NCBI GenBank assembly: GCA_946408655.1 | Contig: CAMJTE010000002.1 | Span: forward strand, 1-44,551 | Reading direction: 5' to 3' | From: an uncultured Bacillales bacterium | GTDB lineage: Bacteria; Bacillota_I; Bacilli_A; RF39; UBA660 | Length of the DNA stretch: 44,551 nucleotides | In this document: positions 9,284 to 14,471 of the stretch, piece after piece | Layout of the letters: the number at the start of each line of letters is the position of its first letter | Position numbering within the stretch: the first letter of the stretch is position 1 | Notes under the pieces: generated by a model | Seen by the model: the letters and a program-made list of their open reading frames with translations, nothing else | What the model was told of the DNA's origin: nothing | Database searches by the model: none | Position numbers and translations under genes: made by a program

Positions 9284-9529
9284 ATGGAAAATGTTTTACA
9301 GGGGACAATAATTGCGATAGGTTCAATGCTTGGTTTAGCGTTCCTAGGTTTTGGTATTGGTATTGGAATAATGAGTGCCAAAGTTGCAGAAAGTGTTGGC
9401 AGAAATCCCGAAACAAAAGCTGACGTTGTTCATTCAGTTATGACAATTTTAGTTGTCGGTGCTGTATTTTTATTATTCTTATTTGCGTTTGTATTTTTCT
9501 TATTATTCTTTAATCCATTAACAGTATAA
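9284..9529 (+). CDS. F-type ATPase subunit c-like proteolipid lacking the ion-binding carboxylate
   Basis: An 81-aa two-helix hairpin with glycine motif GFGIGIGI and loop AESVGRNPE (compare the canonical c-subunit loop ARQPE). Helix 2 ([29 protein letters not shown]) contains no Asp or Glu. Confidence 0.75.
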
Positions 9530-10257
9530 TGACAGATGTATTTATAATAATAACTATTCTTTTTGTTATGTCAGTAATAATATTCTTTCTTATAAAAAAA
9601 ACAGTTAAGGATATTAATCATAACTCAAAAGAATACTATTTATTGAAATTACAAGACTATGATAATTTGATTAGTGATAATAAGGAAAAGCAAATAAATA
9701 CAAAGGTCGAAGAAAATGTGATAAACAGAGATTTGACTTCTGTAAAAGAATCATCAGAAAAAGTGCTGCTTGAATCAAATCCTGAATATCAGATCGATGA
9801 TTTTTTAAAGTTAGCTAAAGATGTAGATAAAGAGTTTAATATTGATGTTAATGAAATTATACGTAATTTTTTGGATAAAAAAATAATTGATACTAGTATG
9901 AATTATTTTTCTAATTTAGTATTGGTAAAGAAAAAAATTAATAGTATTGGATTATATAATCTTGCAGTAGATTTAAATGGACTTAAGAAGTTATTAACAG
10001 AGGTTAATCAGATCGATGAATTAATAGTAAATAAATATAAAAGTTCATCGTATGAAAAAAGTATCATGGGATTCTATAATTTTTTAAAAAGCGAAATTAA
10101 TTATAATGATCCTATCATATATATAGAAGTAGGAGATAAGAACATTAGTTTTAATAATGTTAATGATAATATAAAAACAGTCTATAATCCTAATATTTAT
10201 AAGGGAATAATAATTAAATACAAAAATAATATGTATGATTATAGTTTAAGTTTTTAA
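9529..10257 (+). CDS. Single-pass membrane protein in the b/delta position (peripheral-stalk candidate)
   Basis: The ATG overlaps the c-like stop by 1 nt (TAATG). It has an N-terminal TM (VFIIITILFVMSVIIFFLI), a charged helical region and then a globular C-terminal part. The assignment rests on its position between c and alpha, as in atp operons; no sequence motif was recognised. Confidence 0.5.
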   Translation: MTDVFIIITILFVMSVIIFFLIKKTVKDINHNSKEYYLLKLQDYDNLISDNKEKQINTKVEENVINRDLTSVKESSEKVLLESNPEYQIDDFLKLAKDVDKEFNIDVNEIIRNFLDKKIIDTSMNYFSNLVLVKKKINSIGLYNLAVDLNGLKKLLTEVNQIDELIVNKYKSSSYEKSIMGFYNFLKSEINYNDPIIYIEVGDKNISFNNVNDNIKTVYNPNIYKGIIIKYKNNMYDYSLSF

Positions 10258-10266
10258 GGAGGATAT

Positions 10267-11598
10267 ATGGATAAAAATGGGGAATTAAGTTCTATAAACG
10301 AACAGATTAATAAAATAAAAAATGAAAATAATAAATATACTTTAGGAAATATTATTTATATTCAAGATTATATTATTCATGTTATTGGACTAGATGATGC
10401 CTTCTTTTTTGAAAGAGTAGTTATAGGTACAGATAACATAGGATATATCACTAAAATTGAAGCAACTTATGCAGTGGTTGCAATTATAAAGAAGAATGGT
10501 GAAATATCTGTTGGTGATAGTGTTCATAGAACTAATGAACCATTTTTAGGTATATATTCTAATAGTGCGATAGGACGTGTTATTGATATATTTGGAGTAG
10601 ATAGGTTGACTGATAAAAAGTTTAAAGATATCTTAAAATTAAATATTGAAACTACCAATATTCCGATTGTTAATAGGGCTAAAGTATCAAGACCACTATT
10701 AACAGGAATTACAGGTATTGATTTGATATATCCAATCGGTAAAGGACAAAGACAATTAATAATCGGAGATAAAAAAACAGGGAAAACACAAATATGTATA
10801 GATACAATTGTTAATCAAAATGATAAAGGGGTTATATGTATCTATAATGCAATTGGTAAAACAAAAAAAGAAGTAAAGCAAATTTATTATGAATTATTAA
10901 AGCGTGGGGCAATGAAATATACTGTTATAATTGCTGCGTTCTATGAGGATGCACCAACTGTTTTAACTCTTACCCCTTATTTTGCTTTATCAGTAGCTCA
11001 ATTATATATGAGTAATAAATATGATGTTTTAGTTGTTATTGATGATTTGAAAAAGCATGCAGATGCTTATAGAGAAATAGGTCTTATGTCTTCTAAAACT
11101 CCAGGACGTGATGCATATCCTGCTGATATATTTTATTTTCACTCTAGACTATTAGAAAAAGGTTGTCAACATAAAAATGGAGGAAGTATCTCTATATTAC
11201 CAATAATGGAAACAAAATCAGGAGATATTACAGATTATATATCTACAAATATTATATCTATTACAGATGGTCAAATTGTATTATCATCAAAGAACTTTGA
11301 TAAAGGGGAAAGACCAGCAATCGATTACGGTCTTTCTGTATCTAGATTAGGCGGAGCAGTACAGGATGCTAATATGAAAAAATTGGGTGCCAAGGTAAGA
11401 AGTAAACTGCTTACATATTTAGAAACTAGAGATATATATGAACTTGCAAATGCCGATGAAATGACAGATGAGTTAAGAAATAGATTATTTGAAGGTAAGA
11501 AGATTGTGGATGCATTAAAGCAATATAAATATAGTCCTATTACTCCAAATGAAATGATGGAAAAACTTAAATTTGTAGAAGAGGAAAATAATGGCTAA
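10267..11598 (+). CDS. F1-ATPase alpha-subunit-like protein (443 aa, shortened)
   Basis: Walker A GDKKTGKT (canonical GDRQTGKT). Further matches to alpha-subunit signatures are DDLKKHADAYREIGLMSSKTPGRDAYPADIFYFHSRLLEKG, GSISILPIMETKSGDITDYISTNIISITDGQIVL and RPAIDYGLSVSRLGGAVQ. Confidence 0.9.
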   Translation: MDKNGELSSINEQINKIKNENNKYTLGNIIYIQDYIIHVIGLDDAFFFERVVIGTDNIGYITKIEATYAVVAIIKKNGEISVGDSVHRTNEPFLGIYSNSAIGRVIDIFGVDRLTDKKFKDILKLNIETTNIPIVNRAKVSRPLLTGITGIDLIYPIGKGQRQLIIGDKKTGKTQICIDTIVNQNDKGVICIYNAIGKTKKEVKQIYYELLKRGAMKYTVIIAAFYEDAPTVLTLTPYFALSVAQLYMSNKYDVLVVIDDLKKHADAYREIGLMSSKTPGRDAYPADIFYFHSRLLEKGCQHKNGGSISILPIMETKSGDITDYISTNIISITDGQIVLSSKNFDKGERPAIDYGLSVSRLGGAVQDANMKKLGAKVRSKLLTYLETRDIYELANADEMTDELRNRLFEGKKIVDALKQYKYSPITPNEMMEKLKFVEEENNG

Positions 11599-12362: not shown

Positions 12363-13706
12363 GTGGTAGGAAAAATAATATCAATATCGGAAATAAATGT
12401 AAAGATATTATGTGAAGATTTAAGCGGAATAAAAATAGGAGATATACTTGGAGTTGATGATGAAAATCAATTTGAAGTCGTAGAAATAAATGATAATATT
12501 ATTACTTCAATTCCATTAAAAAAAGTAATTGGTTTAAAAAAAGGATTAGCTGTAAAAAAATATGATGATGGTATAAAAATAGAGTATTCAGATAATATTC
12601 TGGGTAGAGTATTTAATCCATATGGTAAATTACTTGAGGGGAATAATTTCCAAACTGAAAAAGCAAAGAATGTTTATGACTATAAAATGGATTTTAAGAG
12701 TGTCAATGTAAATAATGAACTGTTTTTAACTGGAATAAAAATAGTTGATTTCTTTGCTCCACTTTGTAAAGGATATAAGATGGGATTTCTAGGAGGAGCT
12801 GGAGTTGGAAAAACAGTTTTAATAAAAGAGTTAATCCATAATGTTTATACATCAAAAGGTTCAAATTCAGTTTTTATTGGAATAGGTGAGAGATCACGTG
12901 AAGGTAGAGAACTTATTGATGAGATGAAAGAGGCTAATTTATTCAATAAAATTTCTTTAGTATTTGGTCAAATGGGTGAAAATCCAGTTGAAAGAAGCAA
13001 AGCAATTTATAGTGGTGTTACCTTGTGTGAATACTTAAGAGACGAAAAGAAACAAGATGTATTATTATTTATTGATAACTCTTATCGCTTTGTTCAAGCA
13101 AAATCAGAAATTTCAATGGAATTAAACCATATTCCAATTGAAAATGGATATACTACAACTCTAAACTCAGATGTTAGTGAAATAGAAGAGAGGATTAACT
13201 CTAATGAAAATGGTACAATAACATCAATACAAACTATCTACGTACCAGCTGATGATTTAAATGATGAAGCAGTTCAAACAATAGTCTCACATATGGATGG
13301 ACAGATCACACTTGATAGAAAGATTGCTGAAAAAGGTTTATATCCAGCTATCAACGTTTTTAAATCGAGAAGCAAGGCATTAGATGTTGATATAATTGGT
13401 GAGACCCATTATAATCTTGTTCAAGAAGTACTTAGATATTACACTAGATATGAAGAATTGGAAGAGATTATTGCTGTACTTGGAATAGATGAATTATCAA
13501 ATGACGATAAGAATATTTTTTACAGAACAAGAAAACTTAGAAATTATTTTACTCAACCTATGTTTGTTGCTGAAAATTACACTAATATTGCTGGAGAATT
13601 TGTTGAAATAGCTGATGTATTAAAAGATGTATCTGATATTTTAAATGGTATTTATGATAGTATTGACGAATCTAAATTCTTATATATTGGGAGAATTAAA
13701 GTATGA
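12363..13706 (+). CDS. F1-ATPase beta-subunit-like protein (447 aa), catalytic motifs intact
   Basis: GTG start with SD AGAGGTG. Motifs are Walker [21 protein letters not shown] (catalytic Glu region), [11 protein letters not shown], and a DELSEED-like loop [10 protein letters not shown] followed by [15 protein letters not shown]. Confidence 0.9.
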
Positions 13707-13942
13707 TTGTAAAGATATTTTCTTTAAATAATGGACTTACTGAGTATAGAGATGTTATTTCTGTAAAACTGGTCAGCAAGGACTATAATTTGTTGATTTT
13801 AAAAGATTATATACCGATTATTGGAGAAGTTGATGGAAGTATAGAAGTAAAATATCAAGATAAACAATTAATGTTTGAGAATGTTTTTGCCTATTACATG
13901 AATCAAGATAATGTATTTAACTTAATTTTAAAGGAGAAGTAA
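13703..13942 (+). CDS. F1-ATPase epsilon-like protein, N-terminal beta-sandwich only (79 aa)
   Basis: ATGA overlap with the beta stop. Its position after beta and the pattern ...[22 protein letters not shown]... resemble the epsilon N-domain. It is too short to contain the C-terminal helical hairpin. Confidence 0.6.
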
Positions 13943-13943
13943 A

Positions 13944-14471
13944 ATGTTAGACTATTTAAATAAAATTATTAATTATTTTCCATTCTTTATTTCTTTTTTT
14001 GTAATAATTATATTTTTATCTGTTATTTTGGATAAAGTTATGAAGAAGAATAAAAATAATATTAAAATTTTTGGATTATTTATGGGATTAAGCAATAGAA
14101 ATATATTATCATTGACATTTATTACTACTTCTTACATATTTTTTATATGGCAGTTATTCTCTAAATCAGTTGATTTAGTAACACTCGGTGTGATTTTTAC
14201 ATGTTTTGTTTTAACAGATATAGTTTCAAAACAATATATAAAAATTATTTTTTCCATAATAAGCTCTGTATTACTTTATCTAGGATTATATTGTAAATGT
14301 GTTTTCTATGATTATATAACAACTATTCACTCATCATTCATCGAAATTATATTATTAATACTTTTAGTTTTATTTTTATTCTTCTATATAAGTTATTTTT
14401 TAATCAAGAAGGCTGACTATATAGTTGTCCAAAATAAATATATAAAAAAAATGAATGGTAAAGATTCTTAA
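13944..14471 (+). CDS. Polytopic membrane protein (175 aa, ~5 predicted TM helices), unknown family
   Basis: It starts 1 nt after the epsilon-like stop and has an SD AAGGAG. The sequence is highly hydrophobic. No a-subunit signature (conserved Arg in LRLFGN context) was recognised. Confidence 0.7.
   Translation: MLDYLNKIINYFPFFISFFVIIIFLSVILDKVMKKNKNNIKIFGLFMGLSNRNILSLTFITTSYIFFIWQLFSKSVDLVTLGVIFTCFVLTDIVSKQYIKIIFSIISSVLLYLGLYCKCVFYDYITTIHSSFIEIILLILLVLFLFFYISYFLIKKADYIVVQNKYIKKMNGKDS

Follow-up and report, generated by a model that had tools for sequence, protein, structure and literature searches.

A putatively ion-blind, F-type-derived ATPase encoded beside giant surface-protein genes in gut Firmicutes

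The closest described counterparts of the gene cluster analysed here, a set of F-type ATPase-like genes at positions 9284-14471 of contig CAMJTE010000002.1 from an uncultured Bacillales bacterium of the RF39 lineage (assembly GCA_946408655.1), are the canonical F1Fo ATPase and its derivatives in mycoplasmas and in the N-ATPase family. Below, "the window" denotes the whole stretch of DNA that was analysed, 44,551 nucleotides in length. Mycoplasma ATPases of Type 2 and of Type 3 comprise a protein with 12 transmembrane (TM) helices, a cytoplasmic protein of small size and a large protein that has a signal peptide and, at its C-terminus, two TM helices, and contain neither a c nor a b subunit (PMC12994834); their alpha subunit is missing the N-terminal helix, and they possess no peripheral stalk (PMC12994834, PMC11864180). 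The logic proposed for both Type 2 (gliding) and Type 3 (MIB-MIP) is that ATP hydrolysis inside the cell brings about a conformational change outside it (PMC3369863, PMC12994834, PMC11864180), and a hypothetical encounter, by chance, of an F1Fo ATPase with a membrane adhesin has been put forward to account for the origin of the mycoplasma motors (PMC11864180). The N-ATPases have kept the a subunit and an ion-binding c subunit, contain AtpQ and AtpR, and are devoid of delta (PMC3369863, PMC4154653). In a literature search of incomplete coverage, we found no published F1-like ATPase outside mycoplasmas, nor any report of a relevant carboxylate-free c-ring or of an RF39 ATP synthase.

The cluster in the window combines an F1-type head with a c-like protein that is devoid of the ion-binding carboxylate. 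It probably encodes a functional, ion-blind, F-derived ATPase. We further lean, with little more than even confidence, towards the view that this ATPase is an ATP-consuming mechanical motor encoded together with the surface proteins on which it probably acts (2510-24630).

The ATPase genes

The window has a guanine-cytosine (GC) content of about 25%, and the standard bacterial code reads it cleanly. All seven core open reading frames (ORFs) that had been delineated in an earlier sequence-only reading of this DNA were found in place on the + strand, spaced by 10 bases or fewer or overlapping slightly. They encode, in order, a c-like protein, a protein of 242 amino acids (aa) that is treated below as a predicted b-delta fusion, alpha, gamma, beta, a 79-aa protein and a 175-aa polytopic membrane protein (tm175). 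The likeness to atp operons to which that reading had drawn attention is genuine, since the succession of c, b(-delta), alpha, gamma, beta and a protein in the epsilon position does mirror their gene order. The seven genes are as follows:

9284..9529, + strand: c-like subunit, 81 aa (PF00137, E 3.7e-7, above gathering score)
9529..10257, + strand: predicted b-delta fusion, 242 aa (AlphaFold2 and Foldseek; no significant Pfam hit)
10267..11598, + strand: alpha-like subunit, 443 aa (PF00006, E 2.4e-69)
11591..12358, + strand: gamma-like central shaft, 255 aa (PF00231, E 6e-24, 85.7 bits versus a cut-off of 39.9)
12363..13706, + strand: beta-like catalytic subunit, 447 aa (PF00006, E 8e-65; Walker A, Walker B, DELSxxD-type loop)
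13703..13942, + strand: 79-aa soluble protein in the epsilon position (position and size)
13944..14471, + strand: tm175, 175-aa polytopic membrane protein with about five helices (hydropathy)

The Pfam search that the sequence-only reading had proposed recognized c, alpha, gamma and beta above their gathering scores, and the 242-aa, 79-aa and 175-aa proteins had no match in Pfam or NCBIfam. A scan of one genome per species yielded 80 loci, whose alpha subunits are 55-67% identical and over which the seven core genes are essentially universal. The seven-gene cluster of F-type ATPase-like genes is real, far beyond what chance would produce.

The decisive feature, which the sequence-only reading had not included, is that the c-like protein lacks an ion-binding carboxylate. 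The protein is composed of a glycine-rich helix 1, an invariant GRNPE(T)K loop and a wholly apolar helix 2. In canonical enzymes, the loop of the c subunit contacts gamma and epsilon. Comparison with E. coli AtpE by hhalign gave a P of 3.4e-8 (E. coli reference sequences were taken from NC_000913.3), and the alignment with the c subunits of Ilyobacter tartaricus and Acetobacterium woodii is ungapped from the loop to the C-terminal NP motif, with the ion-binding glutamate (Glu65 of I. tartaricus) falling on Ala60. Among 62 distinct family sequences, this position is occupied by Ala in 35, Thr in 17, Ser in eight, Asn in one and Met in one, and by a carboxylate in none; a single sequence carries an acidic residue anywhere in the helix-2 core. 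Despite this, selective constraint in the block is strongest on c, for which the ratio of nonsynonymous to synonymous substitution rates (dN/dS) has a median of 0.025, estimated, as are all such ratios below, by the pairwise Nei-Gojobori method as the median over 16 locus pairs. By these alignments the protein is a bona fide c subunit without the membrane-embedded carboxylate.

The absence of atpB and atpI, which had also been remarked upon, was borne out: neither an a subunit nor AtpI was detected by Pfam, by phmmer with E. coli AtpB and AtpI, or by hhalign in the window or in the flanks of the 80 loci, and PF00119 gave 0 hits among the cluster ORFs and 93 tm175 relatives. Since c has no carboxylate, no a subunit is detectable and tm175 has no conserved arginine, the canonical path for H+ or Na+ is absent, and ATP synthesis or ion pumping by the known mechanism is thereby excluded. 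The complex is almost certainly not an ATP synthase or a proton pump.

The head retains the hallmarks of F1. The clear alpha and beta signatures described in the sequence-only reading correspond to the PF00006 matches listed above, and the beta catalytic motifs, likewise described as intact, are invariant: GGAGVGKT (residues 144-151) and GERSREG (175-181), the latter of which carries the catalytic glutamate, are 100% conserved in 74 family members, as is the Walker B aspartate. In alpha, the arginine finger SVSR (in SVSRLGG) is 100% conserved among 78 sequences, over which conservation of the alpha motifs amounts to 97-100%; the non-catalytic P-loop reads GDKKTGKT. Catalysis looks intact on these grounds.

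The best PDB matches of alpha are F1 alpha chains, with alignments starting at query residues 7-10, and its best NCBIfam match is F1 alpha (411 bits versus a cut-off of 554; 385 bits versus 484 for TIGR00962). The N-terminal segment of alpha canonically binds delta, and an alignment that begins at residues 7-10 implies that this segment would be at least partly present. Gamma reached a P of 8e-7 over 212 columns against E. coli AtpG (hhalign) and an E-value of about 4e-4 against PDB gamma chains, and scored 58.6 bits on the atpG equivalog (cut-off 194). The closest solved chains to beta are bacterial F1 beta subunits (362 bits for Fusobacterium nucleatum and about 358 for Bacillus PS3), and the match between family beta and the beta of the Mycoplasma mobile G1-ATPase is weaker (306 bits); on atpD, beta scores 446 bits against a cut-off of 463. 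Together, alpha, beta and gamma lie below the NCBIfam equivalog cut-offs for the F1, N-ATPase, Type 2 and Type 3 families. Their F1-type identity can be regarded as established at the level of profile matches, gamma being divergent but significant. The shortening of the subunits that had been noticed earlier is also evident: the alpha profile match ends at about 433-440 of 503-507 atpA positions, so that approximately 65 C-terminal residues are gone, gamma matches profile positions 13-259 of 285, and the 79-aa protein has the size of the epsilon N-terminal domain alone.

Some relatives carry longer head subunits. In one sub-lineage (L027:9905-13177; L004, L015, L021, L006, L009, L014, L040 and L043), alpha bears a C-terminal extension of 120-650 residues, giving a protein of 560-1090 aa; the extension begins at the end of the truncated C-terminal domain and is acidic, of low complexity, internally repeated and rich in E, T, V and P. 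In another relative (L056:12076-14121), beta has 681 aa, with about 230 extra C-terminal residues ahead of the 79-aa gene.

These data bear on the possibility that the cluster encodes an ordinary ion-translocating F-type ATPase, merely divergent, whose a subunit is encoded elsewhere or hidden in tm175 and which, by hydrolysing ATP, maintains the membrane potential in a fermenter. The gene order of an atp operon, the nearness of beta to the atpD cut-off (446 versus 463 bits), the name "F0F1 ATP synthase subunit beta" that NCBI gives to relatives' beta, and the fact that b, delta, c, alpha, gamma and beta can all be accounted for speak for such an enzyme. However, not one of the 62 c sequences has the carboxylate and helix 2 is apolar throughout, tm175 has neither the essential arginine nor a likeness to a, alpha, beta and gamma all fall under the equivalog cut-offs, and the cluster is embedded among surface-protein genes in lineages of 22-56% GC. 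We therefore consider this explanation improbable.

The 242-aa gene, present in 79 of the 80 loci, appears to supply the peripheral stalk. In its AlphaFold2 model, built from 35 sequences with a mean predicted local distance difference test score (pLDDT) of 78, an N-terminal TM helix runs on as a long helix (2-67); residues 61-86 form a flexible linker of low confidence, residues 92-192 a bundle of helices and residues 197-241 a C-terminal domain with four strands. When the model was compared with the PDB by Foldseek, 25 of the 26 best matches were OSCP/delta or mycobacterial b-delta chains, drawn from yeast, Acinetobacter, Bacillus PS3, E. coli, chloroplast, bovine and mycobacterial b-delta structures, and the Pfam OSCP profile gave weak hits in three of 31 members of the family. 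The enrichment of delta/OSCP chains is unmistakable, and the protein is predicted from this model to be a compact b-delta fusion forming a one-piece peripheral stalk. Thus, the statement in the sequence-only reading that the cluster contains no separate delta is literally so, but a delta/OSCP-like domain is predicted by AlphaFold2 and Foldseek to lie inside the 242-aa protein. The "unknown membrane sector" that was likened there to that of mycoplasma X0 also needs to be revised, as what appear to be a true c subunit and a b-like stalk are kept here. Among the relatives P0076, P0108 and P0149, the public name of beta is "F0F1 ATP synthase subunit beta" and that of b-delta is "hypothetical protein."

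The 79-aa gene is found in all 74 loci that reach that far and evolves with a dN/dS of 0.08. Its profile had no match among PDB sequences, and Pfam gave none for the consensus and high-GC members; ATP-synt_DE_N (PF02823) was hit by one of 31 family members, at E 0.023. Scores from hhalign against six canonical epsilons were 11-12, compared with a column-shuffled background of 10.1 +/- 1.8, and the comparison with E. coli epsilon alone was likewise at background (the E. coli AtpC used, like AtpB, is identical to NC_000913.3). The sequence tests being at background, the epsilon label that had been given to this protein rests on position and size. The C-terminal helices of epsilon inhibit hydrolysis in several bacterial enzymes, and the 79-aa protein is possibly the epsilon beta-sandwich without these inhibitory helices.

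Of the 74 loci that continue beyond the 79-aa gene, 73 contain the last of the seven genes, tm175, as counted after iteration with a hidden Markov model (HMM). A HMMER search of 1.84 billion representatives recovered relatives in 72 clusters at 50% identity, nearly all of them full-length at about 165-215 aa, and no match was found between the tm175 profile and PDB sequences. The charge distribution suggests that the N-terminus is outside and the C-terminus inside; neither a conserved arginine nor any other conserved charged residue was found. An AlphaFold model made from four sequences had a pLDDT of 49 and was not used for a fold search. As candidates for its identity, the a subunit and AtpI were ruled out as far as sequence tells: ATP-synt_A and ATP-synt_I hit 0 of 62 sequences and none of 31 relatives, and hhalign against E. 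coli AtpB and AtpI gave P 0.49 and P 0.78, respectively. The orphan status that had been proposed for the polytopic protein after the epsilon position was upheld, and tm175 is, by its homology pattern, an orphan subunit of a small family confined to this cluster.

Selection, hosts and surface-protein neighbours

The carriers of the cluster are nearly all gut metagenome-assembled genomes (MAGs) labelled as Bacilli or Clostridia, with human, rabbit, goat and chicken among their hosts. Clostridium sp. CAG:914 and CAG:302, Mycoplasma sp. CAG:472, Candidatus Merdicola and Candidatus Coprovivens are examples; a single locus, from Lachnospiraceae bacterium AM93-12TA, bears the label of a cultured isolate. 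GC contents of the loci span 22-56%. Two of them, L005 (labelled Ignavibacteriales, 26% GC) and L016 (labelled Muribaculaceae), carry a Firmicute-type cluster, and these taxonomic labels are probably errors of binning or naming.

The median dN/dS values over the locus pairs are as follows:

c 0.025; alpha 0.047; beta 0.046; gamma 0.06
79-aa protein 0.08; tm175 0.11; b-delta 0.14
p239 0.175; p478 0.185; big1 0.22; big2 0.27

Every gene of the block, including the flanking genes introduced below, is under purifying selection, and nothing is decaying. The term "degenerate" in the sequence-only reading is consequently inappropriate, given purifying selection on all genes (0.025-0.27) and the retention of the cluster across genomes of 22-56% GC. 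For the same reasons, it is barely credible that the cluster represents a decaying, non-functional remnant of an atp operon: the shortened subunits, the lost c carboxylate and the missing a subunit might be expected of such a remnant, but all ORFs are intact, the seven genes have dN/dS values of 0.025-0.14, the catalytic residues are invariant, and at least 80 species-level genomes retain the cluster.

The conserved unit is also larger than the seven genes to which the sequence-only reading had confined it. It comprises eleven genes at 2510-24630 with intergenic gaps of 17 bases or fewer, in which the ATPase genes are flanked by genes for large surface proteins; this conserved linkage had not been part of that reading. 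The flanking features are as follows:

2448..2476, + strand: promoter-like site 5' of big1 (TTTACA, 17-base spacer, TG-TATCAT; consensus scan, 10/12 matches, extended -10)
2510..7819, + strand: big1, 1769 aa (ORF; N-terminal TM anchor, large extracytoplasmic part, one fn3 domain, the rest orphan)
7829..9265, + strand: p478, 478 aa (ORF; N-terminal TM anchor, fn3-like region)
14487..15206, + strand: p239, 239 aa (ORF; N-terminal TM anchor, orphan extracytoplasmic domain)
15223..24630, + strand: big2, 3135 aa (ORF; N- and C-terminal TM helices, GLUG-like repeats mid-protein)

The promoter-like site is no more than a match to the consensus, and sites of this kind are not more numerous in the region than the shuffled expectation. 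No regulatory RNA was found upstream of the block, and the scans for promoters and terminators gave no useful information.

All four flanking proteins combine an N-terminal TM helix (residues 8-26, the only one, in big1; 12-30 in p478; 16-34 in p239; 5-23 in big2) with a large extracytoplasmic part, and big2 has a second, C-terminal TM helix (3105-3123). Searches of Pfam, NCBIfam and PDB sequences returned nothing for them besides fn3 (E 1.8e-8 in big1; weak in p478, E 2e-4) and a borderline GLUG match in big2 (E 8.6e-4, just under the cut-off). N-terminal TM anchors are a property of the families as well, being present in 46 of 53, 54 of 59 and 51 of 52 members in three of them. Counted over the 80 loci by tblastn, BLAST clustering and HMM iteration, big1 homologues occupy the same position in 53-57 loci, p478 lies directly upstream of the c gene in 60, p239 adjoins the ATPase genes in 58, where it follows tm175 or precedes c, and big2 homologues lie downstream in at least 32, many loci ending inside big2.

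The loci fall into three layouts. Layout A, that of the window, has the order big1, p478, c, b-delta, alpha, gamma, beta, 79-aa gene, tm175, p239 and big2, and also occurs in L039, an isolate genome of 50% GC, and in near relatives of the window. In layout B, the order is big1, p478, p239, c, b-delta, alpha, beta, 79-aa gene, tm175 and gamma, followed by a gene for a coiled-coil protein. In layout C there are no giants; a 244-aa anchored protein, in which the TM segments alone align with p239 and p478, is encoded upstream of c, and a coiled-coil protein and several small anchored proteins are encoded downstream.

Two gene orders thus exist within the core, as gamma follows tm175 instead of lying between alpha and beta in 23-30 loci (e.g., L007, L018, L024, L031 and L047). 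In 23 loci, the relocated gamma is followed by a conserved cytoplasmic coiled-coil protein of 275-735 aa, which is absent from the window. At L047:15832-19465 and equivalent positions of layout C, the small anchored proteins have a camelysin/TasA-like N-terminus (PF12389); behind them come a signal peptidase S26 (SipW-like) fusion and a DUF5305 protein, an arrangement that suggests a TasA/SipW-type fibre module beside the layout C ATPase.

Downstream of the block, the window encodes a penicillin-binding protein (PBP) transpeptidase with PASTA domains (31100-33217), a polysaccharide deacetylase, a release factor, NifU and a pyrimidine nucleoside phosphorylase; the host is a walled Firmicute. 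The gene at 33229-34851 encodes an inorganic pyrophosphatase of family II (DHH-DHHA2) into which CBS and DRTGG regulatory domains are inserted; the enzyme is soluble and hence not a membrane-energising pump. Directly after big2 (24722-26092) lies a gene for a 456-aa sigma-70 family protein, in which regions 2 and 4, starting from residue 176, are preceded by an N-terminal extension of about 175 residues; this gene is not conserved among related loci. On the other side of the block, a 330-aa protein with HTH_28/HTH_29 domains, which could be a transposase or a regulator, is encoded on the - strand at 841-1833, divergently from the block and separated from big1 by 676 intergenic bases. At 37665-38429, a tRNA-Met (CAT) gene precedes a 185-aa fragment of a phage-type integrase encoded on the opposite strand, probably what is left of an element that had integrated at the tRNA.

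A possible mechanical role

A feasible mechanism for a motor of this kind can be sketched. Everything that a torque generator needs is there: gamma, the c-ring and probably the 79-aa protein would make up the rotor, and alpha3beta3 and b-delta, probably joined by tm175, the stator. ATP hydrolysis in beta would turn gamma, the 79-aa protein and the c-ring against the stator, so that a membrane-embedded ring would be rotated or strained. As there is no ion to pump, this work would be delivered to something touching the ring or the stator. The best candidates for such a load may be big1, p478, p239 and big2, which are putatively co-transcribed, single-pass and N-terminally anchored; because the TM helix is their only cytoplasm-proximal part, they would be the obvious load. 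Their TM helices could dock on the rotating ring or on tm175, and torque or cyclic force would then reach the large extracellular parts, resulting in adhesion, release, surface movement or remodelling. The lack of epsilon-type C-terminal inhibitory helices would fit an enzyme meant to hydrolyse ATP. By analogy, this is the logic of the mycoplasma Type 2 and Type 3 systems, which would have been reached with a different, more F-like membrane sector. We put the chance that the ATPase mechanically actuates its neighbouring surface proteins at slightly below even. It is also tempting to speculate, although we hold this to be rather unlikely, that the cluster represents a fourth class of F-type-derived motor, present in walled gut Firmicutes, in which the full rotary architecture with an ion-blind c-ring uses ATP to move or reshape giant adhesin-like proteins; such a complex would be a new surface machine and a living intermediate towards the mycoplasma motors for gliding and antibody cleavage.

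The same gene linkage would be expected if the ATPase powered the export, insertion, folding or extraction of its giant neighbours, following a logic like that of FliI/FliJ in type III export. At 1769 and 3135 aa, the partners are of unusual size, a single N-terminal helix serves as their anchor, and alpha and beta match FliI/SctN profiles (E 1e-47 to 1e-62), as F1 subunits generally do. On the contrary, the N-terminal helices resemble ordinary Sec/YidC-type signal anchors, the c-ring, gamma shaft and peripheral stalk that are kept belong to a torque generator rather than to an export gate, of which no homologue is present, and layout C keeps the ATPase without giants. An export motor is unlikely on this evidence, while still deserving serious consideration.

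Layout C bears equally on the idea that the rotary ATPase has a membrane role unrelated to its neighbours, concerning lipids, lipid-linked envelope precursors or the membrane itself, with a linkage that is incidental or regulatory. The core is universal while the flanks vary among layouts A, B and C, the last of which has no giants, and an ion-blind ring must work on something that touches it, which need not be a protein. However, p478, p239 and big1 adjoin the core in about 57-60 of 80 loci over a wide divergence and with tiny gaps, and the gene directly upstream of c encodes a single-pass anchored protein in layout C too. We regard an unrelated membrane role as quite unlikely.

Several observations weigh against a mechanical motor acting on the flanking proteins. 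The coupling between the ATPase and the giants is one that we infer from gene linkage, and about 13-20 layout C loci keep the seven ATPase genes without giant neighbours, implying that the giants are not obligatory partners. The Foldseek matches of the 242-aa model are weak when taken singly (E 0.012-1, TM-score 0.2-0.35; best E 0.012, with a probability of 0.87-0.91), the low TM-scores being due to the free long helix, and no significant sequence-profile match was obtained between the 242-aa protein and E. coli AtpF or AtpH. The identity of the 79-aa protein as epsilon is unproven by its sequence comparisons. Furthermore, tm175 could be an a subunit that has diverged beyond recognition, as its helix count is comparable and its topology possibly N-out/C-in, and a non-canonical ion path may still be conceived from the sequences.

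The locus is of wider interest on several counts. A c-ring and stalk that are kept while ion coupling is lost, with adhesin-like giants adjoining and in walled relatives, would make the scenario for the origin of the mycoplasma motors testable. The strongest purifying selection in the operon acts on a c-ring that has no ion site, which raises the question of what a ring that carries nothing does. As one carrier at least (L039) bears the label of a cultured isolate, biochemistry and cryo-electron microscopy may be feasible. Finally, automatic names of the form "F0F1 ATP synthase subunit" may lead metabolic reconstructions of gut lineages to credit them with an ATP synthase or proton pump.

Comparison with known ATPases

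Compared with the canonical F1Fo ATPase (Type 1; atpIBEFHAGDC), the cluster shares alpha, beta, gamma and c by sequence, the same gene order, the conserved c loop and, by predicted fold, a peripheral stalk with a delta/OSCP-like head, and its closest solved structures are bacterial F1. It differs in having no c carboxylate and no detectable a subunit or AtpI, in the predicted fusion of b and delta in 242 aa, in an alpha shorter by about 65 C-terminal residues, in an epsilon-position protein without C-terminal helices or detectable epsilon signature, in the extra orphan five-helix subunit and in its giant surface-protein neighbours. It resembles the N-ATPases (atpDCQRBEFAG), which accompany a genuine F-ATPase, as a divergent F-type operon whose alpha and beta score partially on their profiles. 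The alt_F1F0 scores of alpha, beta and gamma (344, 390 and 25 bits) are, however, far below the respective cut-offs of 750, 752 and 282, and neither an a subunit nor a c carboxylate was found.

For individual subunits, more specific precedents exist. The joining of a b-type anchor and stalk to delta recalls the mycobacterial b-delta protein, chains of which from Mycobacterium smegmatis and M. abscessus were among the Foldseek matches. On the other hand, the protein described here has 242 aa instead of about 440 and no sequence similarity to its mycobacterial counterpart, and in the mycobacterial enzyme b' is an additional, separate subunit and the a/c ion path is normal. Among PDB sequences, the c-like protein is best matched by the c1 subunit of the hybrid c-ring of A. 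woodii (PDB 4BEM). The second hairpin of c1 contains Gln (AVAQTTG) where the first contains Glu (AVAETSG) and provides a precedent for a carboxylate-free hairpin. Only one hairpin per A. woodii ring is without a site, and that ring still carries Na+. By contrast, in the present cluster each copy of the sole c gene product lacks the site.

The nearest functional parallel is with Type 3 (MSC_0618/0619) and the Type 2 G1-ATPase (MMOB1610-1670), with which the cluster shares an F1-derived head, seven genes, the absence of a and a linkage to surface effectors. The parallel with mycoplasma F1-like X0 ATPases drawn in the sequence-only reading can be retained as an analogy between repurposed F1 motors, but the accessory subunits differ and the family cut-offs are missed. 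The mycoplasma enzymes themselves exist alongside a genuine F1Fo ATPase of the same genome. Here, NCBIfam and PDB scores serve as a proxy for phylogeny. Orthology to the Type 2 or Type 3 enzymes outside Mollicutes might be suggested by the low-GC Bacilli carriers (several MAGs being labelled Tenericutes, Mycoplasma or Mycoplasmatota), by a seven-gene core beside surface-protein genes, and by beta scores of 396 bits on MSC_0618 and 373 bits on MMOB1670. These scores are, however, below both the cut-offs (570 and 850, respectively) and the score of the same protein on atpD, and alpha likewise misses the Type 3 cut-off (298 versus 520) and that of MMOB1660 in Type 2 (367 versus 600). Furthermore, beta is closer to bacterial F1 beta than to that of the M. 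mobile G1-ATPase and, at 447 aa, is without the long N-terminal extension of Type 2 G1 beta. The c subunit, b-delta and the alpha N-terminal segment appear to be kept, whereas all three proteins specific to Type 2 and Type 3 are absent (PMC12994834, PMC11864180); in particular, no 12-TM protein was found in the block. The flanking surface proteins are unrelated to MIB, MIP and Gli in NCBIfam and Pfam, and the carriers, unlike the hosts of enzymes belonging to Type 2 or Type 3, are walled (PBP with PASTA). Orthology of this kind is very improbable.

Consequently, by its profile scores and subunit content the cluster is neither a canonical F1Fo ATPase, nor an N-ATPase, nor a mycoplasma Type 2 or Type 3 ATPase. 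It is best filed as a variant among the F1-derived ATPases repurposed as motors, set apart by its ion-blind c-ring, its predicted b-delta fusion, its orphan membrane subunit and, in walled gut Firmicutes, its conserved linkage to giant surface proteins.

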